Of a stretch of DNA of 64,000 nt, positions 1,680 to 57,664 are shown piece by piece. A program made the translations under genes and the position numbers. The DNA comes from a virus (lineage: Duplodnaviria > Caudoviricetes): IMG/VR virus record IMGVR_UViG_3300024181_000005, positions 706 to 64,705 of that record; one strand, 5' to 3'. The notes below the pieces were generated by a model. That model had not been told where the DNA came from and ran no database searches. It worked only from the letters and a program-made list of their open reading frames with translations. Within the stretch, counting starts at the first letter, position 1. Each line of letters opens with the position of its first letter.

Positions 1680-4600
1680 TATGCTGTCCTTCCCGAACCG
1701 GCCCAGGAGGTCTGCCTAGTGCCTTCAGTGGTTGCCTTAGAGACGACGGTCGGGTTGCCTGTGACTGCGTCCACGATGAACGCCGTGAGCACCTTCCCGT
1801 CAAGAACGAGGTTGTACGGCCCGAACGCTCCTGCGGAGGGAGCGGGTGGGGGAGTCGGTGTCGTCGCGGATACCGTCGCTCCGCCCGAGGTTGTTGCGAG
1901 CGCAGGTAGCGCCACCGTCGGGGCTACCGCAGCGTTCGCGAGGCTCTTCCCCGCGAGCACCACCGCCCGCAGCCCGTTCTTGATGCCGTCCGTGAGACCC
2001 CGGCTGATGAACTCACCGAGTTGGAACATGACCCGCGACGGGCTCTTGATCTTGAGCGCCTTCTTGATGGCCGCTGCCATCTTCTTCGCTATCTGATCCA
2101 TCTGCTTGTCGATAGCTTTCTGCTGGCTCTTCAGGCCGTTCACGAGGCCCTGCGCGGCCCGCACTCCCGCGCCGTACAGCGCATCCGCCGTGGCCTTGCC
2201 AACGCTGTTCGCGGCGGTGCCGAGCTGGCTCTGAAGGCTGTTGAACGTCTTGATGTCCTCGGCGCTCGCCGTCGCCAGCGCCTTCGCCATGACCCCGCCG
2301 TCCGCGACGCCAGCATTAGCAATCTGTGCGATCAGGTCCTTGTTCAGACCGCGCTTCGCGAGCGTCTGGATGTCGGCCGCGAACTGCTTCGCCTGCGCGA
2401 CAGCCTTGGCGAAGCTGGCCTTGACGCTCTCAAGGTTGACGGCCTTCTTACCGGGCTGGATGATACTGAATGAGTCCTTGACCGATTGCGCGGCCTTGGC
2501 CTGTGCGTCGGCGTAACTCTTCTGAACCGCCGTCAGACTGGCCTGCGCAGTCTTGAGCTTGCCTGCTACCGTCACGGCCTTGTTCGAGAGCGCCGTGAGC
2601 TGCTTCGTACCCTTGTTCAGCGTGTTCAGCACGCTGTTCTTCTGGCTCTTCTTGATGACCCGGCTGCTGAACGCATCGTTGACGCTGTTGGCCACCCGGT
2701 TCGCCGCCGCGCGCACCTGCTTGGCGGTACCGGTCAGGCCGTTGATGAGGCCCTGATTGATGAACCGGCCCAGAGTGACCATCACTCGAGACGGGCTGCT
2801 GATATGCAACGTGCTCTTGACGCCGTTGATGACCTGCTTACCGACGGAGGCCGCCGCACTCACCGCAGCCCCGACAGCACCGGAGATACCGCGAGCCAGG
2901 CCCAGCACCACATCGCGGCCTGCTCCCACGAGCAGGCTCCCGAGGTTGCCGACCGCGCTCTTGACTTTGCCAGGCAACGAACGTGCCACGTTCGTGACAC
3001 TGCTGATGCCGGAGTTGAACGCGTTGCGCACCGCGTTCCAGGCTGCGGTCGCCACCGCCACGATCTGGCCCGGGAGCGCGCTGATGGCCGCCCGCGCGCG
3101 GCCTGGCAATGCCTGCGCAAACCCCACCACAGCCGCAATGCCGGTAGCGAATGCTGTGCGCACCGCGTTCCAAGCATTCGTGGCTAGATTGACCAGGGTG
3201 CTGCCCAGAGCCGACAGCGCCGAGGCCACGCGCCCCGGTACCGCAGCCACGAACGAGATAACCAGGCCGATCTCCTGGCCGAACGTGAAGGCCATCGCTT
3301 TGACCGCAGCACTGACCGAGCTGACCAGTGTTCCGGGCAGAGCCGCCAACGCGCCACCGATACGACCGGGCAGGCTGGTGAACCATCCGATGATGGCCGC
3401 GCCTGCGGTCACTACCGCGTTGTACGCCCCGGTGATGGCGCCGGTGAAGCCGGAGATGAGGGCCTGGCCGAAACCGAGGACCGCTCCCACGATTGTAGTG
3501 AGCGCCACCTGCATCTTGACCAGGAACGTGACGACCTTGATACCCACGGTGATGAACTGCACCAGGATGGGCACGAACTGAACGAAGGCGTTGACCAGCA
3601 CCGGGATCAGCGGGATGATGGCCGTGAGACCCTGTTGAAGCGCACCCGAGACCACCGTCGCCAGCTCGGTGAACGCAGGCACGAGCTTCTGCATACTGTC
3701 GAGGAGCTGCGGGAGGACCGGGAGGAGGGCGTCCGCGAAGGTGGTCGCCACCTTCACAATGAGCGGTGCGACCGGTGCGAACGCCTTGGCGATAGCCGAC
3801 CCGAGCTGGGCGGCCAACGGCAGGTTCTGCGCGAACGCCTGCACGACCGGGACCAGCGCCTGGAAGGCCTCGAGCATCGCCCCGCCGAGTACGCCGATAA
3901 CCGGACCCAGCTCCGAGGCGAGTGCGCTCAGCCCGGTAGCGAGCTGCGTGGCGATCAGGCTCACGAGCTGGGCTACCGGCGGGATAAGCGGCGCCACCGC
4001 ACCGAGAATGTCCGCGATCGCCTTAGCTACCGGAGCCAGGGCTGGCGTGAGCGCCTCGACCACCTTCAGGAGCTGCGGCCCCACGGTCTGGGCGATCTGG
4101 CTGAACGCAGGCCCGAGGGCTCCGGCGAGGGCTCCGGCGAGCTTCGTGATGACCGGAGACAGTTGTCCGGCCACCTGCGCGAGCCCCGTGAACAGGCTCG
4201 TGATGGCGCTCTTACCTGCCGCGCTCTTCAGGAACTCGTTGAAGGCGCCGGTGATGCTGGCCAACGTATTGAGCAGCCCACCCCCCGTCCCCGCCGCAGT
4301 AGCGAAGACGGTTTGCAGGATGCCGCCGACGTTCTGAGCGATGGTACCAAGCGTCTTCAGCGTGGCGAGGGCCGTGTCGATCCACGATTGCAGGCGACCA
4401 TCACTCGCCACCGCGCTGAGCCAGATCGTGAACTTTTCGGCCAGCCCGTCAACCGCCACTCCCATCTTCGCGAGCAGCGGCAAGCCCACGTCGCCCACCG
4501 ACCGCAGCGCGCCGAGGAGCGGCACGATGTTGGGCAGCACCTGCGCGAGCGCAGCCTTGAACGTATCGATGGCCCGCGTGAGAAACGCAACGCTATCGGC

Positions 4601-29264: not shown

Positions 29265-29403
29265 TGTACTTGACCCCTCCGTGATTGAGGCACGTCTGAC
29301 GCCCCTCGTTGGGCTGCTTGGTACCGTCGGCGCACAGCACCTTGTCCCCACAGCCTGCCAGCAGACCGACGACCAGCGCCAGCACTACCGCCGTCCTCTT
29401 CAT
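29254..29403 (-). CDS. 49-aa lipoprotein (DUF3761-like C.DGT...C..HGGV motif)
   Basis: MKRTAVVLALVVGLLAGC lipobox; ATGA overlap; absent from ORF track. Confidence 0.75.
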   Translation of the reverse strand: MKRTAVVLALVVGLLAGCGDKVLCADGTKQPNEGRQTCLNHGGVKYNAR

Positions 29404-29696
29404 GAGATGTCCATCCTGATCCTCTTGACGATCGGGTACGCAGCCAGGTTGGGCCGCATCAGAGCGTCGGGCTTATAGAACACGTACACCACGACCGGGT
29501 GCTCGAGGTCACGACGGCCGAACACCACCGTAGAGGCCCGGTACCCGCGCTCGGCCGCCGCCGCATAGACGTACCCACGAAACGACTCGGCCTCGCACAG
29601 GAACTCGGAGCCTCGCTGGGCCCGGTACGCCTTCCCGGGCTCGAGGGGCTGCACATTGCCCAGCAGCCATCCGTACTTGCTGTTCTGCCACTTCAT
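29400..29696 (-). CDS. Hypothetical protein (possible small DNA-binding fold)
   Basis: 98 aa; preceded by the ACTCGGCCGGGAGG start-associated motif. Confidence 0.7.
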   Translation of the reverse strand: MKWQNSKYGWLLGNVQPLEPGKAYRAQRGSEFLCEAESFRGYVYAAAAERGYRASTVVFGRRDLEHPVVVYVFYKPDALMRPNLAAYPIVKRIRMDIS

Positions 29697-29742
29697 CGCA
29701 GCCTCCCGGCCGAGTGGCCCGGCTTCTCCTCCGGACCGTGCG

Positions 29743-29827
29743 CCACCTAGGTAGGACTCGAACCTACGCCTTCCCGGCTACCCGATGCGTGACACGGGTG
29801 ATGGTCTCCTGTCAGAGACACTAGGTG
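29743..29827 (-). ncRNA. tRNA-like element 1 (atypical 85-nt cloverleaf)
   Basis: Acceptor CACCTAG/CTAGGTG, T-arm GTAGG-TTCGAGT-CCTAC, short D arm, 10-nt anticodon-type loop, variable stem; trailer G-CGCA. Confidence 0.65.
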
Positions 29828-29892
29828 ACCCTCCGCCCACTACTGCGGAGAGGCGGGGCGGGAGATGCCGGGTTCTCACCGCCCCTGCAAAG

Positions 29893-30072
29893 CTACTTCT
29901 TCTTCAGAGCCTTGACGATCTTGCCGAACAGGCCCTCTTTCTTCGGCTGTCCTACCGGCTTCCCGTCGCGTACGGCGCGGCGGTCAGAGCCCTTCGCGTA
30001 GCGCGGTCCGTTCGGCCCGGTCCGGCCTTCTCGACGCCACTGCGGGAGCATGTCGTCCCAGTCATTCGGCAC
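29893..30072 (-). CDS. 59-aa basic protein
   Basis: GTG with GAAAGG RBS; ends in amphipathic GLFGKIVKALKKK. Confidence 0.55.
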   Translation of the reverse strand: MPNDWDDMLPQWRREGRTGPNGPRYAKGSDRRAVRDGKPVGQPKKEGLFGKIVKALKKK

Positions 30073-30856: not shown

Positions 30857-31524
30857 GCCTCGTCCCGCAGGTTCACACGCGGCTTCAGGTAGATCTGTCG
30901 CATGGTGTCGTTGCCCAGGAAGTACCCGAACACGCCGTACTGACTCTGGCAGGTCATCGTGTGCAGGCAGGCGACGTCGTGCATGTGCTGCACGGCCGAG
31001 CTGTACGCGCCTCGCAGGGTCTGCTCGGGCTGCACCTTCACGGCCTTAAAGCTCAGATGTGGGATGGGGTAGCGCGAGACCGGCAGGCCGTTCCAGCTCT
31101 GGCCGCTCGGCTGCCAGAGCGCCTGATGCAGCGGGCTGAAGCCCATGATGCCTGCGGCGTCCGAGCTCAGCATCATGACCTCCAGCCGGTACCCGTAGTC
31201 GGGGTGGCTGAAGAATCGGTAGTCGACACAGTACCGGGTGCCGAACGGGCTCGTGGAGACCACGTCGCGGTCCTCGTTGAACGCGGTCCAGCCGTTCGCC
31301 TCGAGGTAGATCGACAGCTCGCCCCGGTGCCAGGGATCGGGCACGAGGATGGCCGCCTCATCGATGAAGGCGTCTTTGGGGAGCCGGTTCTGATAGTGCG
31401 CGATCCAGGTGCTGATGGCCAGCGTGTTCGCGGTCATGTCGGCTTCGGTGTTGAACACGACCGGTCGCCGGAACGCAGGCACGTTCTCGACCATGTCGTT
31501 GAGCTGAAAGTCGTTGTCCAGCAT
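30853..31524 (-). CDS. Hypothetical enzyme, possibly VOC/glyoxalase-like
   Basis: Start ATG 31524; LEVMM, HLSFK, YLKPRVNLR segments; fold assignment is inference. Confidence 0.5.
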   Translation of the reverse strand: MLDNDFQLNDMVENVPAFRRPVVFNTEADMTANTLAISTWIAHYQNRLPKDAFIDEAAILVPDPWHRGELSIYLEANGWTAFNEDRDVVSTSPFGTRYCVDYRFFSHPDYGYRLEVMMLSSDAAGIMGFSPLHQALWQPSGQSWNGLPVSRYPIPHLSFKAVKVQPEQTLRGAYSSAVQHMHDVACLHTMTCQSQYGVFGYFLGNDTMRQIYLKPRVNLRDEA

Positions 31525-31526
31525 GG

Positions 31527-34500
31527 TTACTCCGAGGGTGTCAGGATGTGTATTTCCTTGGCGGTGATGGCCCGCCGGTACTCGGCTCGCTTGTAGCCCC
31601 GGACCAGCACGAGGTCTCTCTTGAGGTCGATGTCCCAGATGTCGTCCTTGTGTTTGTCGTAGAATCCGTCCCAACGCGGGACCGTGATGACCAGCGGCCC
31701 GGTCTCGTCCTCCCCCGTGATGACGACATAGTTGACGTACTGCGGTTGCTTCACCTTCTTCGGGTCGAGCTCCTCGCCGGTTCGTGACCGGTGCAGCTCG
31801 TAGATGTCCTTCATGTTGAGCAGCGTCACCCGACCGATCCAGGTGTGCTCGCCTGGCTTCGCCTCGTACGGAACGTCCTCGCTGCGGGAGGAGGGGTACG
31901 GGAGGGAGAAGCGTTCGCCGTTGTCGTTCAGCCACCGCCGCATCTTCGTGAGCTGCTTCGTGAGCGTGTAGATGCCGAAGGGGTCTGCCTGCGCGGCGAA
32001 CTCCTGCACCTTGACCAGGGTGGCCGCGCCGACGCCCTTGACGCCCCGGCCCGTCTTCGGGTCGCTCTGGTAGTCGACCCATTCCATGTCAGCGGGGTCA
32101 ACGCGCGCGGCGGCAATCTCGTTCTCGCGCCATTCCACCATCAGGCCAGCCGTCTTCTCGCCGATGCCCGGGACCTGCACGAGGCCCGCCCGCAGGCCCT
32201 CACCCTCAATCGACCACTGAATCTGACTCGCTCCCGGATCCGGCGGTAGAACCGCGAGGCCCGTGGCCGCAACCTCCTTCAGGATGTCCAATGCCTTCTC
32301 CTTGTGTGAAGGGCCGCTGAACTGCTGCAAACTCGCGCAATAGAAAGCCAACGGGTGATGCACCTTGAGCCACATCGTCCAGTAGGCCAGCATCCCATAG
32401 GAGACACAGTGGGCAGCATTGAAGGCGTACGCACCAGCCGTGACGAGTTGTTTCCACACACGGGCAGCAACAGCCTCACGCACCCCGCGCTCGGTGCACC
32501 CCGCCAAGAACTTCCCCTGAAGTCTGTTGAAGGCTTGCTCGCCTTGCTTTTTCGAGATGAGCTTCCTGACGAGCGCGGCTTCCTCCCATGTGAACCCTCC
32601 CAGCTCCCGCACCGTCCGCAGGATCTGCTCCTGATAGACGATCTGGCCTTGTGTCGTTTCGGTTATCTCGGAAACTACGGGGTGGAGTTTCTCGACGATC
32701 TTCTTCTTATGCTTGGCCATGATGTACTCAGCCGCAGCCCCAGAGTGCAGCGGGCCCGGCCGAGCGAGAGCGTTAATGTCACAGACTTCGGCGAATGTGT
32801 CCGGCTTGACCTCACGATTGACGCTGCGCATCGCGCGGCCATCAAATTGAAAGATACCGATGACACGGTTAGCTCGGAACCCCTCGTACACCTTCTCGTC
32901 ATCCAGAGGTACCGCATACAGCTCCTCCAAGCTCATCCCGATGTACTCGAGAGCGATAGCGATGATGCCCATGGTGGTCAGGCCCAGCGCATCAATCTTG
33001 AGCACGTTCAGATACTCGGCGTCGTACTTGTCGATAGACAGTACCTCGCCGATCTTCTTGCCACGTCCTTCCTGCGCCTTCTTCGCGGTCTCGTAGCGCA
33101 CATAGACAGCCAGGTTATCGGTCAGCCGACCATTCGCCACCACGAGGCCCGCCGCATGCACCGAGAACCCCTTCAAGTTCCCCTCGAGGCGCTGCGCGTC
33201 CTTCAGCTTGGGATACTTCTCGAACGCGTCGCGTACCTTCGGGAACAGCGCGATGCTGTCCTCGATGGTCTGGCCTGCGCGCAGGTCACCCGAAGACCGT
33301 ACGAGGATGGAATCCTTGACGCTCTCTGCCACGCCGTACGGGATCTCATGCACGCGGGCCACATCATCGATGCTGTTCTTGCCCTTGTACATCGTGAAGG
33401 TACCGATGTTGCCGACGTGGTCCGCCCCGTACATGTCAACGAGGTGCTCGCGCACCCGGTAGCGCTGGCGGTCGTCGAAGTCCAGGTCGATGTCCGGTAG
33501 GTCGTGCCGGTTGATATCGATGAACCTCTCGAATATTAGGTTGGGGAACAGCATCGGGTTGACTTCGGTGATGCGCAGCAGCCAGCACACGAGCGAGGCC
33601 GCCGCCGAGCCTCGGGCGGGCCCGACGGGGATGCCGTTCGTCTTGCTCCACACCACCATTTCCGAGATGACCAGGAAGTAGTCGACGAACTGCTTGAGGA
33701 TGATGAGGTCAGCCTCGCGCTTAAGCCGGGCCAGGCACCGCCTGCGCTCCTCGCGGCCGAGGTGTTGCAGACCGCGATACGACCAACCTTCCCGCAGCCA
33801 TCGGTGGAACAGCTCTACCGAGGGTATCTCGCCCGGAAACACGAGGTCCTTCAGCTTGGGCAGCGTGACGGAGCAACGATCGGCTATCTCCAGTGACGTT
33901 CCGATGGCACGCTCCGCCACCGAGCGGCGTAGCCCGGTCTCCAGTAGTCCCTCGTATACGGCATCACCCGTCTGGTGAGCCAGCAGGATGCCATACTCCC
34001 AGCTCTGCGCCTGAGCCTCGACCGTGTTCTTGTTTCCTCGCCGGTCAATAGCGTGCAGGAGCGGGTAGATGTCCTGGTCCTTGGCCGTCGGATAATGCAC
34101 GTCTCCCGTGACGACGAGTGGAATGGCGAGGCGGCCTCCAATGCGTTCGAGCGCAACATTGTACGCACGCTGCTTTTCGAGCAATGGGTGCGCTTGTACT
34201 TCCAGGTAGTATCGATCTCCGAATATCTCTCGGAACTGACTGGCCACACGCATACCCGCACGCAGATCCGCCGCATGTTCCGCTTCCCCCTTCCCTCCCA
34301 TCACCGCAGTAGCGAGCCGCCCACCCAGGCAGCCCGACAACACGATGAGCCCGTCGCTGTGGTTGGCCAGCATCTCCCCCGTCGTGGTCGGCTTGTAGTG
34401 GTGGTTCTCCCACGATTCGGAGACCACGCCGTACAGGTTCGAAAGCCCGCGCTGGTCGGCGGCCAGCACGGTCAGGTGGTGCTTCGTCTGGCCCCGAGCA

Positions 34501-39807: not shown

Positions 39808-42663
39808 TCATTCTTCCTCCATGTCTCTCACAATGCGAATCAGTTCGGGCGTCATGTTGATGTAGCCCTTACTGCGGCGGCGGACCATGCCCATGCGCAG
39901 CAGCTCGCCGACGGCTTGGCTGGCCATCTCTCTATCCATGCTCCCGAACTCTTCGAAGTCCCGGGCTCGGAACTGCGTGTCGTTAATCGCGGTAGCCAGC
40001 GTCTTCAAGACGCCTTCGTGGGCCGCGAGGAAATGCCGACACTGCTCGCTGTACCGCTCCGCGTTGGCCTTAGCCCGAATCTCCTTCTTGCTGTGGTCAC
40101 CGTACCCGAACCACCGTTTGCCGTACAGCTCATCGAGAAGCTGGACCGCCGTGTCAACATGCTCGCTCTTCACCAGCACCGACAGCCCTTCGCCCTCGTG
40201 GCTAAAGAGCCTGGCCGCCACCGCTACTGACAGGCGTGCGAGCTTCACGCGCACGTTCTCTGGCTGAATCAGAGGCGGGTCCGCGACGTACCTCCCACCC
40301 AGCTCCTCCGCCGCAGACAAGACTCGGCGCTCGGCACCCCGACCCCAGAGCACCTGTTCGGGCGTGCGACTCCAGGCCCATGTGACCAGGGCAGAACACA
40401 GGCCCTGCGTGGCGCGTGGCGGAGCCTTCGGCGGCGTGGCACTGTTGATGATGCTGGACTGCACGTCGTCCTGGGCGGCCACCATCGCGAAGTCGAACCG
40501 CGCGACGTCCTCGGGGTTGGTGATGAGCTTCTGAATGGCGTCGATGGCCCCATTGTTGGTCGCTTGAATCGGTCGACCGTCCGGGGGATTGCTAATCCAG
40601 ATCGTCCGGGTACGGGCGAACGTTTCCTGCTGCACGACCTTCGTGACCTGCGCGCGCCCCGAGCTGCGCACCGCGCTCATCTGCTCGATGATGTTCTTGT
40701 CGCTGATGCCGGACACCTCGTCGAGAATGACAAGCCTGCGGTCTTGCAGGGGAATGGTACCCCAGGTGATCACCCAGGAGTTCCCGATCTGTTGCGCACC
40801 ACCCACGAGCCCGGCGAGCGTCGCACCCTCGCAGCTCTTGAGCACGCCACACTGATAGTGGTGCCGGAGACGCTCCGCAGCCTCGCTCTTTCCGGTACGG
40901 GTGTCTCCCATGACAAGGAGCTCCAGCCAGCCCTTACCGAGACGATTACCCCGGAAGGGAAAGTCCAGCACGGAATGCCAGACCAGATCGTAGGCAATGT
41001 GCAGCTCGGGGCGTCCGTAGATATGCGTGACGTTGGCGGCCAGGTCCCGAGCCAACTCAGATAGCTTGTCCATGGGAGTTTGGCTGGGTCCGGGTTGGAA
41101 GACATCCTCTAGGGCACCCCGCAATTCTTCCGTCATCTCGAATCTATCGAGACTGGTTTTGGTCTCCTCGCATTGCCAGCTCTGGAAGACCATGTGCCCG
41201 CTCTTCGGGGAGGCGGTCGAGACCCCGGTCAGGCGGGCGGTGGTATTGACGGGCGTGAGCTTGCCGGACTCTGTGACGTTGAACACGCGCCGCAGTACCT
41301 GCTCGCCCTCACCCTCGTTCGGGTCGTCAACATTCGGGATCACCGCCAGCTCATCAACGCGCCATTGATCATGTGGCGTGATCTCCACACGAGGGCAGGT
41401 TGCCGGGATCTCCAATGCGCGCAGCATTTCTGACGTGCGTTCCTTGTCAGCCATGTCGAGCATCTTCAGGAGCAGGCGATCGTCAGCCGGTATCTCGTGC
41501 TTGTGCTCGCCGCCCCACATGGTCTCCATAGGGCAATTGCTGCACTTCGTCTTCTGCCAATCCTGCCCACAGTGCAACTCGAACCTGCGGAGGAGGGCGG
41601 TAGGGGTGGCGCTGCGTCCGCTGATCGTGGCCACCATGGCGATCGGCTTGTCCAGCAGCGCGGGGTCGAAGCTGTTGCGCATACGGATGTCAGGTACGTC
41701 ACCCGCCACAACCGCGCGCTCGCGGCTCAGCTTGCGTTCGCGGTACGGCGGGGTGGCCTTGCACAGGTCGATGAAGCTCTGCCTGCCGTAGCCTTGGTTG
41801 ACGAAGTAGTCGGTGAAGTCGTTACCCCGCACCGTGAGCGGCAACTTGACGATGTAGATAGCCTCGGCGGTACGCCGCAGGTGGTTGGCGACCTTCCTGG
41901 ACCCCGCGTCGCCCTGGTCGTCAACGTCGTACACAATGTAGACGATCTTGCCGATGAACAGCCCGTCCCATTCTCCCATCCAGGTCCCGGCACCTGCGGT
42001 GGCGGAGAGGGTGGGGAAACGGTATTGCCGACCGATCAGCTTGTCCATCTCACCCTCGGTCAGAAACACTCGCTTCTGTGTGAGAGCATCGAGGCCGTAC
42101 AACGCGGCATCGCCATAGCCAGGCCAGTTCACCATCTTGTTCGCCTTGAGGCCCATGCCGTACCGGCGCACGTTGACCAGCTCGCCCTCGGCGCTGAACA
42201 CCGGGATGGTGATGCGCTCTCCGTCCCAGCCGAGCCGGTACCGCGCGATAGTGCTACGCTGCAATCCCCGACGGGTCAACAGGTCTTTCATCACATCGGC
42301 CTTGCCCAGCAGGCGGGCCGACCAGGCGTTCAACTGCTCGTCGTCGGGGAGCGCCACCGTGAGGCCCTCGGCACGCTGCTTGCGGCGCCTGCGGGCCCCT
42401 ACCTCGTCGAGGGGCTTGCCGTCGGTACGCCGCTCCGGGAGCATGCCCTTGTCAACGATCGACCAGAGCTGGCCGAGGCTGTAACCCCCGCAGCGGCTGA
42501 AGCAGTTGAACGTGCCCTTGTCGAAGTTGAAGCTGGCACTGGGTGTGCTGCTGCTCTCCGGGTCTTCGTGTGCAGGGCAGTAGCCCCGCGTCTCGCCGTC
42601 GGCCTCATCTCGGACGACCCATTTATGGAATCGTCGTCGCCAGCCAGCCCCGGATGTCCCCAT
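39808..42663 (-). CDS. Primase-helicase fusion: Zn finger + TOPRIM + MCM-type AAA+ helicase
   Basis: CPAHED...FNCFSRCG; TEGEMD, YDVDDQG; GDTRTGKS, GLVGG, ILDEVS, VARFD. Confidence 0.85.
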   Translation of the reverse strand: MGTSGAGWRRRFHKWVVRDEADGETRGYCPAHEDPESSSTPSASFNFDKGTFNCFSRCGGYSLGQLWSIVDKGMLPERRTDGKPLDEVGARRRRKQRAEGLTVALPDDEQLNAWSARLLGKADVMKDLLTRRGLQRSTIARYRLGWDGERITIPVFSAEGELVNVRRYGMGLKANKMVNWPGYGDAALYGLDALTQKRVFLTEGEMDKLIGRQYRFPTLSATAGAGTWMGEWDGLFIGKIVYIVYDVDDQGDAGSRKVANHLRRTAEAIYIVKLPLTVRGNDFTDYFVNQGYGRQSFIDLCKATPPYRERKLSRERAVVAGDVPDIRMRNSFDPALLDKPIAMVATISGRSATPTALLRRFELHCGQDWQKTKCSNCPMETMWGGEHKHEIPADDRLLLKMLDMADKERTSEMLRALEIPATCPRVEITPHDQWRVDELAVIPNVDDPNEGEGEQVLRRVFNVTESGKLTPVNTTARLTGVSTASPKSGHMVFQSWQCEETKTSLDRFEMTEELRGALEDVFQPGPSQTPMDKLSELARDLAANVTHIYGRPELHIAYDLVWHSVLDFPFRGNRLGKGWLELLVMGDTRTGKSEAAERLRHHYQCGVLKSCEGATLAGLVGGAQQIGNSWVITWGTIPLQDRRLVILDEVSGISDKNIIEQMSAVRSSGRAQVTKVVQQETFARTRTIWISNPPDGRPIQATNNGAIDAIQKLITNPEDVARFDFAMVAAQDDVQSSIINSATPPKAPPRATQGLCSALVTWAWSRTPEQVLWGRGAERRVLSAAEELGGRYVADPPLIQPENVRVKLARLSVAVAARLFSHEGEGLSVLVKSEHVDTAVQLLDELYGKRWFGYGDHSKKEIRAKANAERYSEQCRHFLAAHEGVLKTLATAINDTQFRARDFEEFGSMDREMASQAVGELLRMGMVRRRSKGYINMTPELIRIVRDMEEE

Positions 42664-42666
42664 GTG

Positions 42667-42924
42667 TTACCTGTCCTCATATTCGTTCAGCTTCCCGGTA
42701 CGCAAGCAGCTTGCGGCGTACTCGGCATACGCCATGATGCGGACATCCTCCGGCCAGCCGTTGGCAGCCATGCCGTCACAGAGCAGTCGACGCACGGTCG
42801 CCATACCGGCCTCGCCATTCTTGGCCAGCGATGCCAGGCAGAACCGTTCCTGCGCAGCCATCTTCGTTTTCACGATGGTACTGCGCTGGAAGCCGTAACC
42901 CTGCGAAAGGGTGTCGTCTGTCAT
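42667..42924 (-). CDS. Putative RHH-like DNA-binding protein
   Basis: Strand TIVKTKM plus two helices; GGAGGAGG RBS; first gene after region B. Confidence 0.5.
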   Translation of the reverse strand: MTDDTLSQGYGFQRSTIVKTKMAAQERFCLASLAKNGEAGMATVRRLLCDGMAANGWPEDVRIMAYAEYAASCLRTGKLNEYEDR

Positions 42925-45348: not shown

Positions 45349-46503
45349 TTACTTGACTTCGAAGCCGTTGCCCTGCATGGCTTCGCGGTGGTCTGCGTAC
45401 GGGTCGTTCTTGACGAGCATCGTAGCCGCGTACTCCTGGGCCTCGTGCTTGTCGAGCTCGTCTAGTTGGCAGAAGTCGAACAATGGACAGCGGACGCAAT
45501 CCTCCGTGGGGTGCTTCAGGAGGGGTAGCTTACCCCGCCGTACGAGGTCCATGTGCCTGGCCTCATCGATCACCTTCTGGCCCTGGTTGACACGCTGTTC
45601 GAGCCCGCGTCGGGTCGTGTACCGCTCAAACACCGGGCTCGGCTGGACCGCGCGCGGCTCACCGTTAACGGTGAGCCCGAGCTTGCTCGCGATGTCCTTG
45701 AGCATCGGCAGGCTCTCTTTGCCGGTGAGCGCAGGCCCGACCCACGAGCCCGCAGGACCCGGTGCGGGCATCTTCTGGCGCTCCGCCTCGATGGCCTCCT
45801 CGTAGTGCTTGCGCTTCGGCAGGTTGTACCGGATGCCGTCCTCGGCGGTGGGCTGCGGCAGAGCCTTGCGCAGCATGTTGAAGATGATGCCGTCGATGTG
45901 GTCGCGCTTGCCGAGCAACCCCATGTGCCGCAACACTTCTGGCGCGACCCACAGGTACGACCCACCCTGGTCGTTCAGATCGTAGAAGGACCAGTCCTTC
46001 TTGAACTGGGCCCGCGTCTTGTGGTCAACCAGCCGGTACACCTTGTCGACCTTGTCCCAGACGAACAGGTCCCAGGTACCGCAGTAGACGGCAATCAATC
46101 GGCCCGTCTGTGGGTGCCGTACGTCGATCTGAAAAGGCTGCTCGGTGTGCAACACGTGCCAGTGCTGATCAAGGCCGTAGTGCTGCACATAGCCCTTCAG
46201 CATGGCGATGCCCAGCTCGGTCGCATCGTGCACCTCGACGTCGTCGAGTTCGCCGCCCTGCTCGTAGATGCGCCCGGTGTGCTCGCCCACAGCCTCGGTG
46301 AACGCATCGAGCACGTCCGCGATACCTCCGCGCTTGTCCCCGACCGGGTAGCGCACCTCGAGGGCTCTGTGGATGGCGCTCCCAAACCACGACCACGTCG
46401 GCGAACGCTGGCCGCTCAGACCATTGACCCAGTGGTGATACCAGAAGAACTGACACGACTTGAAGTCCGAGCGCTCACTCGTCCTGATCAGCGGGATGGC
46501 CAC
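45349..46503 (-). CDS. Cas4/RecB-like PD-(D/E)xK exonuclease
   Basis: SERSDFKSC, FGSAIHRALE, GTWD...LVDHKT, Q..SY, CVRCPLFDFC. Confidence 0.85.
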   Translation of the reverse strand: MAIPLIRTSERSDFKSCQFFWYHHWVNGLSGQRSPTWSWFGSAIHRALEVRYPVGDKRGGIADVLDAFTEAVGEHTGRIYEQGGELDDVEVHDATELGIAMLKGYVQHYGLDQHWHVLHTEQPFQIDVRHPQTGRLIAVYCGTWDLFVWDKVDKVYRLVDHKTRAQFKKDWSFYDLNDQGGSYLWVAPEVLRHMGLLGKRDHIDGIIFNMLRKALPQPTAEDGIRYNLPKRKHYEEAIEAERQKMPAPGPAGSWVGPALTGKESLPMLKDIASKLGLTVNGEPRAVQPSPVFERYTTRRGLEQRVNQGQKVIDEARHMDLVRRGKLPLLKHPTEDCVRCPLFDFCQLDELDKHEAQEYAATMLVKNDPYADHREAMQGNGFEVK

Positions 46504-46793
46504 GAGGCCCTCACCGGGTCGGTCATGACTTCGTACGTGCTTTCGTCGGACGCGTGCATGAGCCTGCTCTCGGCTCGCGGCAACGTCTGTGCGGTGATGG
46601 TCTGCACCAACCCGCCCGGCATCACCCAGGCGCCATACCACCGCATCGGTACTTCTCGTGCTCGTGCTCGCATAGCTTCTCCTCCATGCGCATAGGGAGA
46701 GGGCCAGCTCGCCCGTCCGCCTGTGGGGTCGGACGTGTGGATGACGCGCTGGCCCTCTTCGCACCGGACCGTGGGTGCCCCGACAGCAGTCAT
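46488..46793 (-). CDS. Hypothetical protein
   Basis: Start uncertain (46793 or 46673). Confidence 0.4.
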   Translation of the reverse strand: MTAVGAPTVRCEEGQRVIHTSDPTGGRASWPSPYAHGGEAMRARAREVPMRWYGAWVMPGGLVQTITAQTLPRAESRLMHASDESTYEVMTDPVRASWPSR

Positions 46794-46868
46794 GGTTCAG
46801 GGCTCCAGCCGTGGAGCGTACGAGACGCGCACGGGACACGACCTACCGCTCTTGGCCTTGCTGCTGCG

Positions 46869-46944
46869 AGGTGGAGGTTGGACTTGAACCAACTGTCTCA
46901 GGCTCCCTGCGCCTGCGCATGACCAAGATCATGCTTTCCCCACC
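46869..46944 (-). ncRNA. tRNA-like element 2 (76-nt cloverleaf, non-canonical D arm and anticodon loop)
   Basis: GGTGGGG/CTCCACC acceptor; GCATGA-TCTTGG-TCATGC; CAGGC-GCAGGGA-GCCTG; AGACA; GTTGG-TTCAAGT-CCAAC; trailer T-CGCA. Confidence 0.75.
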
Positions 46945-46947
46945 GTG

Positions 46948-46970
46948 CCGGGAAGCCTTGCGGCTCCCGG
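46948..46970 (-). terminator. Hairpin terminator with GCAA loop
   Basis: CCGGGAGCC-GCAA-GGCTTCCCGG just after gene 46976..47503. Confidence 0.65.
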
Positions 46971-46975
46971 TTCTA

Positions 46976-47503
46976 TCAGAAGGGCGCCTTGCGGGAGCGC
47001 GTCGGCTTGGCCTCCGCCGGGGCGGCCTCGGGCTCGGCCGCCGGAGTGGTCGCTGCGGTACCGCGCCGACGCGACCGGGTACGGGTGGTCTCGACCGGGG
47101 CCTCGGTCTCCTGAACCGGCTCGGCCGCCGCCTTGGCCGCCCGGGTACGCCGCGCGGGCTTCGCCTCGGGCTCGGCCGCCGCCGGGGCGGGCTCGGCTGC
47201 CTTGGCCGCCGCACGAGCGCTGGCCCGCTCGGCCTTGTCGGCGTCGGCCTTCTCGCGAGCGGCCTCCTGCCGGTCGAGCGCGTCCTGGTAGTCCTGGCTG
47301 GCCCGGAACTCCCGACGCGTGGTCTGTGCGAGGTACAGGGCCTCGGGGTCGATGGTGACGTTGTATTCGGCCTTGATCCACGCGGCGTGGGCCAGGCTGA
47401 GCTCCGAGGGGCCCCGCTTCTGCGAGACGGTTTCCTCGGCCTGCACGGGCTCCGGCTCCGGCGTGGGGACCGGGGCTGCGGTCCGACGGGTACGTGCGGG
47501 CAT
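46976..47503 (-). CDS. Ala/Pro/Arg-rich protein (possible nucleoid/DNA-binding)
   Basis: Short helical core plus low-complexity basic tails; AAGGAG RBS. Confidence 0.7.
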   Translation of the reverse strand: MPARTRRTAAPVPTPEPEPVQAEETVSQKRGPSELSLAHAAWIKAEYNVTIDPEALYLAQTTRREFRASQDYQDALDRQEAAREKADADKAERASARAAAKAAEPAPAAAEPEAKPARRTRAAKAAAEPVQETEAPVETTRTRSRRRGTAATTPAAEPEAAPAEAKPTRSRKAPF

Positions 47504-55768: not shown

Positions 55769-56065
55769 CTACGCCGCGAGAACCTTCACTGCGATCCGCG
55801 TGGCCTCCGCTCCCACCCGCCCCTCGTCCCGCAGGTCGGCCGTGGACCAGGAGAGGTGCACGTCTTCCACCTCGCGCATGATCACGTGCTTGGCCTGGTC
55901 AAAGTCGGCGCTGTACAGCAGGTCCGCCGTCATGGCTGCGCTGTGGCAGAAGGCCGAGATGCGTCCAGCGAAGAAGCTGTTGTCGCGGCTGTGCGGGGTG
56001 ACCTTCTTACCCGTGCTGATCGCCTTACCGATCAGGTTGACCAACAGGTCGTGTGTGCCTGCCAT
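55769..56065 (-). CDS. Hypothetical protein
   Basis: AAGGAGG RBS; 98 aa. Confidence 0.7.
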   Translation of the reverse strand: MAGTHDLLVNLIGKAISTGKKVTPHSRDNSFFAGRISAFCHSAAMTADLLYSADFDQAKHVIMREVEDVHLSWSTADLRDEGRVGAEATRIAVKVLAA

Positions 56066-56091
56066 CGTGTGCCCTCCTTGGCTTGACTGCG

Positions 56092-56131
56092 TGCCCTGCG
56101 CGGGAGTCGAACCCACGTACACCTACAGGAC
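56092..56131 (-). ncRNA. tRNA-like element 3 (40-nt acceptor+T-arm minihelix)
   Basis: GTCCTG/CAGGGC stem + CGTGGG-TTCGACT-CCCGCG; trailer A-CGCA. Confidence 0.55.
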
Positions 56132-56137
56132 GGGAGA

Positions 56138-56157
56138 GGGGCGCCCGTAGGCGCCCC
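56138..56157 (-). terminator. Hairpin terminator
   Basis: GGGGCGCC-TACG-GGCGCCCC just after gene 56165. Confidence 0.7.
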
Positions 56158-56164
56158 TGCGGCC

Positions 56165-56548
56165 TCAGACCGCCTCGGTGGTGTCTTCCTCCTGTGCACC
56201 GAGCCAGAGGGCCTCAAGCTCGTCCTGGTCGGCCTCTTCGAGCTCCTCGGTGATAGCCAGGTCGATCAGGATGCGACGCACCTGCGCGATGCTGACGTGG
56301 ATCTCCTCGGAGATGCTCTTCATGCTACGCGGGGTGATGGCCTCGACGCCCTCGGCCTCGTCCGCGTCCTGGCCCTCGCGCTGCGCCCGGACCCACTCGG
56401 CGTCCGCCCGCTCGGTGGTGCCGTCGGCGAGGAAGTGGCGACGACGCAGGGTGCCATCCTCGCGCTCGTTGTGCACCTTCGCGGTACCGGCGACCAGGGC
56501 CGCGAGCAGGTCGGTGGTGGGGGTGGCAGAGGTGATGACGATGTTCAT
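56165..56548 (-). CDS. HTH DNA-binding protein
   Basis: SMKSISEEIHVSIAQVRRIL; start ATG 56548. Confidence 0.75.
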   Translation of the reverse strand: MNIVITSATPTTDLLAALVAGTAKVHNEREDGTLRRRHFLADGTTERADAEWVRAQREGQDADEAEGVEAITPRSMKSISEEIHVSIAQVRRILIDLAITEELEEADQDELEALWLGAQEEDTTEAV

Positions 56549-57633: not shown

Positions 57634-57664
57634 ACTCTACCATGGTGACCGGGGCTCGGCGCAA
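57634..57664 (-). promoter_or_regulatory. SigmaA-like promoter
   Basis: TTGCGC-N19-TAGAGT-TCTCTCA. Confidence 0.6.

Follow-up and report, generated by a model that had tools for sequence, protein, structure and literature searches.

The DNA analysed here (the window) is a stretch of 64,000 nucleotides (nt), positions 706 to 64,705 of the IMG/VR virus record IMGVR_UViG_3300024181_000005, and covers nearly the whole of this 64.7-kb record, whose completeness is rated 100%. It has a G+C content of 65%. A replication and nucleotide-metabolism module occupies 27–58 kb and encodes ThyX, a DnaE-type polymerase, a primase, a helicase, a Cas4-type exonuclease, a dCTP deaminase and UDG; the Cas4 family label of the exonuclease derives from its synteny with the annotation of phage Wentworth. 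The closest isolated phages (DnaE identity ~45%) are phages of Streptomyces, Arthrobacter and Microbacterium, and the host is therefore most likely an actinobacterium. Three elements resembling transfer RNAs (tRNAs), referred to here as elements 1 to 3, lie between genes of this module, and it is well supported that they are tRNA mimics that do not decode.

All three elements were found on the minus (coding) strand at the positions given by the original prediction (Table 1). Read on that strand, each forms a helix of 12 base pairs (bp) from its acceptor and T stems, followed by a discriminator base and the sequence CGCA, as had been claimed. In element 1, the arm in the place of the anticodon arm closes to a 3-nt loop. 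Element 2 is a complete cloverleaf, with a 7-bp acceptor, a 6–7-bp D-stem, a 4–6-nt D-loop containing GG, an anticodon arm of 5 bp with the loop GCAGGGA and C at position 33, and a 5-nt variable loop. Element 3 is a minihelix in which an 8-nt linker, AGGTGTAC, stands where the D and anticodon arms would be; its helix can be read either as a 7-bp acceptor (with two G-U pairs) on a 5-bp T-stem or as 6+6.

The T-arm motif GGTTCRANTCC occurs three times in the window, always on the minus strand, compared with 0.27 expected occurrences, and in combination with N11-CGCA it was found three times against an expectation of 0.01. Unconstrained folding of element 2 returned the cloverleaf as the minimum free energy structure (−33.6 kcal/mol, z −3.0), including the long D-stem and C33 that had been described for it, and that of element 1 is cloverleaf-like (z −2.9). 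All three elements fold better in the sense than in the antisense orientation, which, together with the G-U pairs, points to an RNA.

None of the elements scores as an ordinary tRNA, all three remaining uncalled by ARAGORN at its default settings and by Rfam at the gathering score. Element 2 reaches 23.8 bits against the Rfam tRNA model (RF00005; gathering score 29), aligned end to end over model positions 1–71. Alignment of element 1 to Rfam models is limited to the acceptor and T-arm, with no tRNA match, and element 3 likewise has no tRNA match, 18 nt of it matching the 3' end of transfer-messenger RNA (tmRNA) at 11 bits. No tmRNA was found in the window by ARAGORN. When the ARAGORN threshold was lowered to 87%, the elements appeared only among 13 mostly spurious calls; since elements 1 and 2 are recovered at lowered thresholds only amid many spurious calls, this result was rejected as support and taken as evidence neither way.

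A search with DnaE retrieved 16 related phage genomes, and six of these, of ~60 kb each, were scanned for elements. The strict scan required the T-loop, a T-stem with five of five pairs including G53-C61, and a complementary 5' strand (seven of seven) within 200 nt. It found 12 elements in the six genomes, all on the coding strand, compared with ~0.4 in shuffled genomes. With slightly imperfect members included, the family comprises ~19 elements in the six phages, most of them in gaps between genes that are syntenic among the relatives and two of them (in the relatives designated G004 and G008) doubtful, and what had been described as a family of three is thus considerably larger. DnaE identity among these phages is only 58–74%. 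Seven of the relatives' copies score 35–54 bits on the Rfam tRNA model, above the gathering score, and the better-kept members carry a D-arm consensus, TAGCTCAG..GG..AGAGC, immediately 3' of the 5' acceptor strand. Queries with the exonuclease and helicase proteins returned almost nothing among viral contigs, and the region of element 2 gave no match to isolated phages by blastn.

Covariation had been named beforehand as a check. MAFFT misaligned the 5' halves of these mixed-length elements, and that first set was not used; the alignment analysed is a second set, of ten elements aligned at both ends. In this alignment, 96% of the cells in the acceptor, D and T helices are paired, compared with 70% for shuffled sequences and 37–48% for slid partners, although the 5' boundaries of some elements were picked by complementarity, so that these counts lean toward structure. 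Boundaries picked in this way receive independent support from the adjacent D-arm consensus and the Rfam alignments, and those of the better-kept members are therefore fixed independently of the complementarity search. Both sides change in 11 of the 16 pairs, and all seven acceptor pairs covary. Thus, the acceptor and T stems covary strongly. The invariant columns of the alignment are T-loop bases and the first two bases of the trailer, C and G.

Several elements can be compared with copies at the same gene boundary. Element 1 has syntenic T-arm elements downstream of DnaE in G001, G002 and G003. The boundary of element 2, between an open reading frame (ORF) ending in ...KAPF-stop and a small ORF beginning MTAVGAPTVRC..., also holds a tRNA-like element in these three relatives. 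In G004 and G008, an element directly precedes the exonuclease and follows an ORF that ends in ...AAF-stop. These five orthologues of element 2 score 46–54 bits, and their 'anticodon' arms differ. Among the copies, the acceptor shifts by compensated steps (GGTGGGG, GGTGGGA, GGCGGGT, GGTGGAG), and the 'anticodon' region consists of the loop GCAGGGA, of a CCTTCGC loop on a 4-bp stem, or of inserts of 21, 35 or 46 nt that form extended hairpins. An intron reading of these inserts was rejected, as they are continuous extended hairpins whose excision would leave no canonical stem and loop.

Element 3 is syntenic with G001 31506–31593 (88 nt, 36.5 bits) and G003 50236–50168 (69 nt, 42.1 bits), which share the acceptor GCCCCTG/CAGGGGC and retain both the D and the anticodon arm, whereas element 3 has lost both. 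In another syntenic pair, the G003 copy has a GAAA tetraloop at the corresponding position, against a stem of 7 bp in the G001 copy. Neighbouring intergenic DNA is not alignable between the relatives, unlike the invariant T-loop and C-G trailer. The acceptor, the T-arm and usually the D-arm are thus kept by compensatory change while the anticodon arms of syntenic copies are wholly different or missing, and it is therefore well supported that these elements are tRNA mimics and not decoders, in agreement with the original prediction. The pattern does not fit decoding, introns or neutral decay; it agrees with selection exerted by factors that recognise just the upper half of a tRNA.

The N-CGCA trailer, in place of CCA, had been regarded as the mark of a special system. 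A comparison with genuine phage tRNA genes does not bear this out. In Mycobacterium phage Bxz1 (L175, 88001–101000), an isolated actinophage that serves as an unbiased sample, the base after the discriminator is C in 20 of 21 tRNA genes; CG follows it in 11 of the 21 and CCA in one. Among 523 ARAGORN-called tRNAs in viral contigs, a set that excludes those selected by the T-arm pattern, C is the first base after the discriminator in 93%, and CGCA is the second commonest 4-mer. A C-G trailer is typical of real actinophage tRNA genes, and the elements, in which C74-G75 is invariant across the family alignment, therefore keep the 3'-processing signature of such phages' tRNA genes. Mycobacterial RNase E cuts directly 5' of cytidines, at RN/CNU with the cut at the slash (PMC10641625), and in our elements a cut of this kind would fall exactly between the discriminator and C74. 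More generally, actinophage tRNA genes seem to follow a rule in which C74 is encoded but the remainder of CCA is not. One 'tRNA-like product' is also annotated in Bxz1.

With canonical phage tRNA genes (RF00005, e.g. those of the Bxz1 cluster) the elements share a 7-bp acceptor on a 5-bp T-stem, a TTCRANY T-loop with the G53-C61 pair, the discriminator, the C-G trailer and, in the relatives, the D-arm consensus, and they almost certainly descend from such genes. They differ in that they do not hold to a 5-bp stem with a 7-nt loop, to U33 or to a conserved anticodon, and in being scattered singly between replication genes rather than clustered. Similar forms were seen in other phages when a sample of viral contigs was searched for a T-arm followed by ACGCA: among the 114 matches listed and examined, 70 are canonical tRNAs and 25 are non-canonical with a perfect acceptor, at lengths of 41–163 nt. 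Anticodon-less tRNA-like forms therefore look widespread in phages.

The elements of the window are intergenic, beginning 31–65 nt past a stop codon and ending 26–75 nt ahead of the next start, which upholds the claim that all three lie 5' of a gene. Across the family, the gap to the next start codon is typically 24–46 nt, and the start follows either a Shine-Dalgarno sequence or a 'start-associated' leader. The upstream hairpins are very strong at element 3 and modest at elements 1 and 2 (z-scores in Table 1), and a strong hairpin precedes about half of the family's elements (mean z −1.3). These structures had been called terminator hairpins; the hairpins are indeed present, but U-tracts are absent and no terminator call was obtained.

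Table 1 Positions of the tRNA-like elements, their trailers and adjacent features in the window.
Feature	Position	Strand	Description
tRNA-like element 1	29743..29827	minus	85 nt; acceptor CACCTAG/CTAGGTG, D-like hairpin, extended 'anticodon' hairpin without 7-nt loop, 3-bp variable arm, T-arm GTAGG-TTCGAGT-CCTAC, discriminator G
CGCA trailer of element 1	29739..29742	minus	predicted 3' cut between G73 and C74
Two hairpins, GGGGCGG...CCGCCCC and CCTCTCCGC...GCGGAGGG	29829..29885	minus	between stop 29893-29895 and element 1; z -1.1
Gene after element 1	29400..29696	minus	98 aa, no family match; ATG 46 nt past element, GGGAGG leader
tRNA-like element 2	46869..46944	minus	76 nt; full cloverleaf, T-arm GTTGG-TTCAAGT-CCAAC, discriminator T
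CGCA trailer of element 2	46865..46868	minus	
Hairpin CCGGGAGCC-GCAA-GGCTTCCCGG	46948..46970	minus	between stop 46976-46978 and element 2; z -1.2
Small conserved ORF MTAVGAPTVRC...	46488..46793	minus	101 aa, ATG at 46793; after element 2, before Cas4-type exonuclease
tRNA-like element 3	56092..56131	minus	40-nt minihelix; acceptor GTCCTGT/GCAGGGC, T-arm GTGGG-TTCGACT-CCCGC, discriminator A
CGCA trailer of element 3	56088..56091	minus	
GC-rich hairpin GGGGCGCC-TACG-GGCGCCCC	56138..56157	minus	between stop 56165-56167 and element 3; no U-tail; z -4.1 against random 45-mers of the genome
Gene after element 3	55769..56065	minus	98 aa, no family match; AAGGAGGG Shine-Dalgarno, ATG 26 nt past element

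Nine near-identical early promoters, TTGCG-N17-19-(GA)TAGnGTTCTC(T/A)CA(T)CAGC, were found on the minus strand between 43.6 and 57.7 kb (−35 starts at 57664, 56977, 56616, 55765, 55046, 54807, 54032, 50541 and 43557); the plus strand gave one weak match. None of them lies within 450 nt upstream of any window element, and the situation in the relatives is mostly similar. The nearest one upstream is 455 nt away for element 3, 3.6 kb for element 2 and 13.7 kb for element 1. Consensus scans found no sigma-70 promoter and no U-tailed terminator near the elements. As neither promoters nor terminators were found at the elements, these are probably internal to polycistronic RNAs.

Other devices occur at the same boundaries. 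In the more distant relatives G005, G011 and G010 (L170, L172 and L173), perfect 20–25-bp hairpins without a T-loop occupy the element 2 gap upstream of the exonuclease. In the window, one gene has a promoter to itself (54032); its counterpart in G001 and G003 follows a tRNA-like element and a promoter sequence that is homologous but looks weaker. These boundaries are therefore filled by different devices, which suggests that such devices may be interchangeable there. Structured RNA of one kind or another seems to be required at the boundary of element 2. A small hairpin lies between element 1 and its start-associated leader (29700–29738, minus strand), and the loop of this hairpin shows the Shine-Dalgarno-like GGAGGAGAAG; it reads CCGG-AGGAGAAG-CCGG in the window and CACGG-AGGAGAAGG-CCGTG in G002 (L039:18971-19010), and G003 has a different hairpin at this spot.

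Nearly all genes of the window (1–64000), structural and replication alike, are on the minus strand. The 101-aa ORF after element 2 lies in another frame than the exonuclease ORF, and its peptide is conserved in G001–G003; the two ORFs may be related by a frameshift. The exonuclease ORF as called (496 aa, putative start GTG at 46839) begins with ~100 codons that have no counterpart in the relatives, homology starting at residue 98–115. In G001, a second tRNA-like element (42599–42726; L035:2599-2726), of 128 nt and without a counterpart in the window, separates the exonuclease gene from the GAPTVRC ORF; it begins canonically, with CGCGGGA-TAGCTCA..., and holds a large insert at its centre. The exonuclease gene of G001 looked as though it were split by a tRNA-like element, a reading that was dropped, since in every genome the GAPTVRC peptide is part of a small ORF of its own.

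The phages themselves carry little that could act on such RNAs. A CCA-adding enzyme was not found in them, Ro/TROVE protein is absent from five genomes (G000–G004), and a Pfam scan of 30 non-structural proteins gave no member of the tRNA-related enzyme families, so that any processing would fall to host enzymes. No canonical tRNA gene was found in these phages, and in the Streptomyces phage Wentworth the coding strand near DnaE is without any such tRNA-like element. Neither a tyrosine (PF00589) nor a serine (PF00239) integrase was found in the genome, which is consistent with a lytic lifestyle.

Among the roles listed for these elements in the original prediction, punctuation of messenger RNA (mRNA) by RNase P and RNase Z fits their anatomy best. 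We regard the elements, with roughly even confidence, as cis-acting tRNA-like processing modules in polycistronic early and replication transcripts. They keep the parts that host end-maturation enzymes would read, namely the coaxial acceptor/T helix, the T-loop, the C-G trailer and mostly the D-arm elbow, and the relaxation of the anticodon arm while the top half is kept matches enzymes that read only this half. Host RNase P would cleave immediately 5' of the acceptor stem, and the upstream message would then end in the GC-rich hairpin that often precedes an element. A host 3' endonuclease, either RNase Z or the actinobacterial RNase E with its preference for sites 5' of cytidines, would cut past the discriminator and free the downstream message with a short leader of 25–45 nt before the ribosome-binding site. 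The by-product would be a released tRNA-shaped RNA of 40–130 nt, possibly with a use of its own. The analysis demonstrates the fold, with its conservation and covariation, the loss of decoding features, the operon position and the tRNA-type trailer; the cleavages and any effect on expression are inferred.

Besides the lean in the pairing counts, several observations weigh against such a role in processing. Just three of the ~40 gene boundaries in the region carry an element, so punctuation is not general, and most early genes have a promoter of their own. Directly upstream of the elements at G001 34942 and G003 46845 there is a homologue of a window promoter; these elements may therefore stand at the very 5' end of a transcript, where separation of cistrons would be needless. 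An RNase Z or RNase E cut would give the downstream message a 5'-monophosphate end, with which it would usually decay faster. Finally, most relatives keep the D-arm and elbow although a minimal RNase P substrate needs less, a hint that the released RNA has a role.

Such a role is central to an alternative that is compatible with processing in cis, and to which we assign a fairly low probability: the elements would act in trans as top-half mimics that ordinary tRNA processing sets free, perhaps with a CCA tail, and that titrate or decoy a host factor reading the acceptor, T-arm and D-elbow. Candidate targets include tRNA toxins of defence systems that act on the acceptor end (nucleotidyltransferases of the AbiEii/MenT type), RNase P, the CCA-adding enzyme and T-loop modification enzymes. 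Retention of the D-arm GG and T-loop in most members, beyond the minimal need of RNase P, agrees with it, as do the promoter-like sequence right upstream of the element in two relatives, the several copies per genome in the early region, and the fact that about a quarter of the T-arm + ACGCA matches listed from viral contigs are non-canonical and come from phages of many GC contents, a spread suggestive of some general use. However, no partner protein was found in the phage, element 3 is wholly without an elbow, and the variable arm differs even between syntenic copies, so that no specific guide or bait sequence is evident. In a more specific version, which we consider unlikely, the excised mimics would be an early, multicopy RNA counter-defence with host-added CCA that soaks up factors attacking or surveying the acceptor ends of tRNAs, for example toxins of the AbiEii/MenT type or acceptor-stem nucleases; without anticodon loops, decoys of this kind would spare translation and escape anticodon nucleases. 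The original prediction had instead offered them as decoys for anticodon nucleases, which is improbable because the anticodon loop is the only part not kept, or as Y-RNA-like elements, for which the partner is missing.

Four further explanations are rated lower. The elements could be uncleaved structural insulators or stabilisers that block exonucleases or 5'-end-dependent scanning by RNase E, or that uncouple translation, their tRNA shape being a convenient stable fold taken from an ancestral tRNA gene. The ordinary long hairpins in the same gap of distant relatives and the hairpins that accompany many elements would suit this explanation, but we judge it quite unlikely, as a stable fold alone needs no invariant GGTTCRANTCC, 7+5 geometry, discriminator or C-G trailer, all of which are recognition features for tRNA enzymes. 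Decay of tRNA pseudogenes, as neutral relics of a former phage tRNA set, would account for the low scores of the window copies (23.8 bits or unscored, against 35–54 bits in relatives), for the resemblance of element 3 to a deletion derivative and for the lack of canonical tRNAs in these phages. Its probability is nevertheless very low: every acceptor pair and most T-stem pairs are kept by compensation across DnaE identities of 58–74%, the T-loop and C-G trailer are invariant amid unalignable intergenic DNA, and only the anticodon arm shows decay. Altered anticodon loops have been reported for phage tRNAs (PMC10264068), and the elements might be working unusual tRNAs, for example tRNA-Pro(AGG) in the case of element 2, that serve in decoding, suppression, frameshifting or escape from anticodon nucleases. 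Element 2 does have a 5-bp stem and 7-nt loop, and ARAGORN names anticodons for some of the relatives' copies. This reading is highly improbable given the C33 and G37 of element 2 and an A34 in a Pro anticodon that is not a bacterial pattern, given that its orthologues carry unrelated 'anticodons' or large inserts while one family member has a GAAA tetraloop, and given that elements 1 and 3 have no 7-nt loop and all three fall below the ARAGORN and Rfam thresholds. It is common for phage attachment (attP) sites to include the 3' portion of a tRNA gene. That the elements act as DNA, either as attP cores derived from host tRNA 3' ends or as replication or packaging signals, is extremely improbable: the attP fragment was rejected in the absence of PF00589 and PF00239 from the genome and with both acceptor strands present and covarying, and, for DNA-level sites in general, G-U pairs form only on the sense RNA and several copies occur per genome.

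Processing of long transcripts at tRNA-shaped structures has precedents outside phages. In mitochondrial tRNA punctuation and in MALAT1/mascRNA, RNase P and RNase Z excise a tRNA or tRNA-like fold from a long transcript, which leaves an upstream RNA with a protective structure at its end and liberates a small tRNA-like RNA. Both systems are eukaryotic; mascRNA is CCA-tailed and exported, and the upstream protection there is a triple helix, not a plain hairpin. The closest likeness is with the t-elements of plant mitochondria, which are non-canonical cloverleaves with the T-arm motif GGTTCRANYCC that lie in long transcripts beside coding regions and keep the acceptor and T-arm while the lower arms degenerate. 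It has been proposed, and for some of them demonstrated, that they guide the cutting by RNase P and RNase Z that produces 5' and 3' ends of mRNAs and frees a small RNA (Forner et al. 2007, PMC1920247; Hanic-Joyce et al. 1990, as cited there). The phage elements share the degenerate cloverleaf, the motif, the coding-strand orientation and the intergenic position, and would share embedding in mRNA. They differ in belonging to a bacteriophage genome, where bacterial enzymes (an RNA-based RNase P; RNase Z or RNase E) would make the putative cuts, and in that their C-G trailer is invariant and their syntenic positions are kept throughout a phage lineage.

The tRNA-like domain of tmRNA and the YrlA and Y RNAs also keep acceptor/T or elbow features without decoding. 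The tmRNA domain differs by its G3:U70 pair and 5' GGGGCUG...UUCGAC, the window acceptors having U3-A70, C3-G70 and C3-G70. YrlA is circularly permuted and works with Ro, whereas the elements end at the acceptor stem as a tRNA does and have no Rfam match to it; identity with Y RNAs was rejected on the same grounds, as the ends are not permuted and TROVE is missing from G000–G004. In a large screen for structured RNAs in IMG/VR, 'tRNAs or tRNA-like structures' are named but not analysed further (Fremin et al. 2023, PMC10690425); the screen offers neither an anatomy of anticodon-less forms nor a link to operon punctuation nor a function. In the literature searched, we found generic mentions only and no description of anticodon-less tRNA-like operon punctuation in phages.

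The usual view of phage tRNA genes is that they serve as codon supplements or take the place of tRNAs that host defences have cut. In the present case, a phage lineage without a working tRNA keeps several tRNA-shaped RNAs, with selection only on the half that enzymes recognise. If the elements are cut sites, these phages use host tRNA maturation to sculpt their own operon transcripts, a form of tRNA-fold cutting already established in mitochondria and in a few long RNAs of eukaryotes; this would also explain the missed annotation and the conserved intergenic gaps in actinophage replication modules. The elements would then be a compact, portable cut-here module that is directly testable. If the released RNAs act in trans, they would represent a new class of phage small RNA, and if they serve in counter-defence, the anticodon-less forms seen across GC contents would mark widespread, undescribed phage decoy RNAs.

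Further tRNA-like forms were seen in other viral contigs. In two contigs of 38–40% GC, 41-nt minihelices on the minus strand (L067 ~1386–1411 and L113 ~3279–3304) have the architecture of element 3: a 7-bp acceptor, an 8-nt linker (AAGGTTTA, compared with AGGTGTAC in element 3), a T-arm and A-CGCA. A 60-nt form in a phage tRNA/tmRNA cluster (L090:5434-5493) combines an acceptor, a canonical D-arm and a T-arm with no anticodon arm, and scores 44.5 bits against RF00005. Three RNAs of ~80 nt (L073:1022-1104, L080:1579-1660 and L082:1844-1924) pass the Rfam tmRNA gathering score with 47–63 bits and match just the two ends of the model, each with a tRNA-like domain containing G3:U70 and a short hairpin that replaces the mRNA-like and pseudoknot part.

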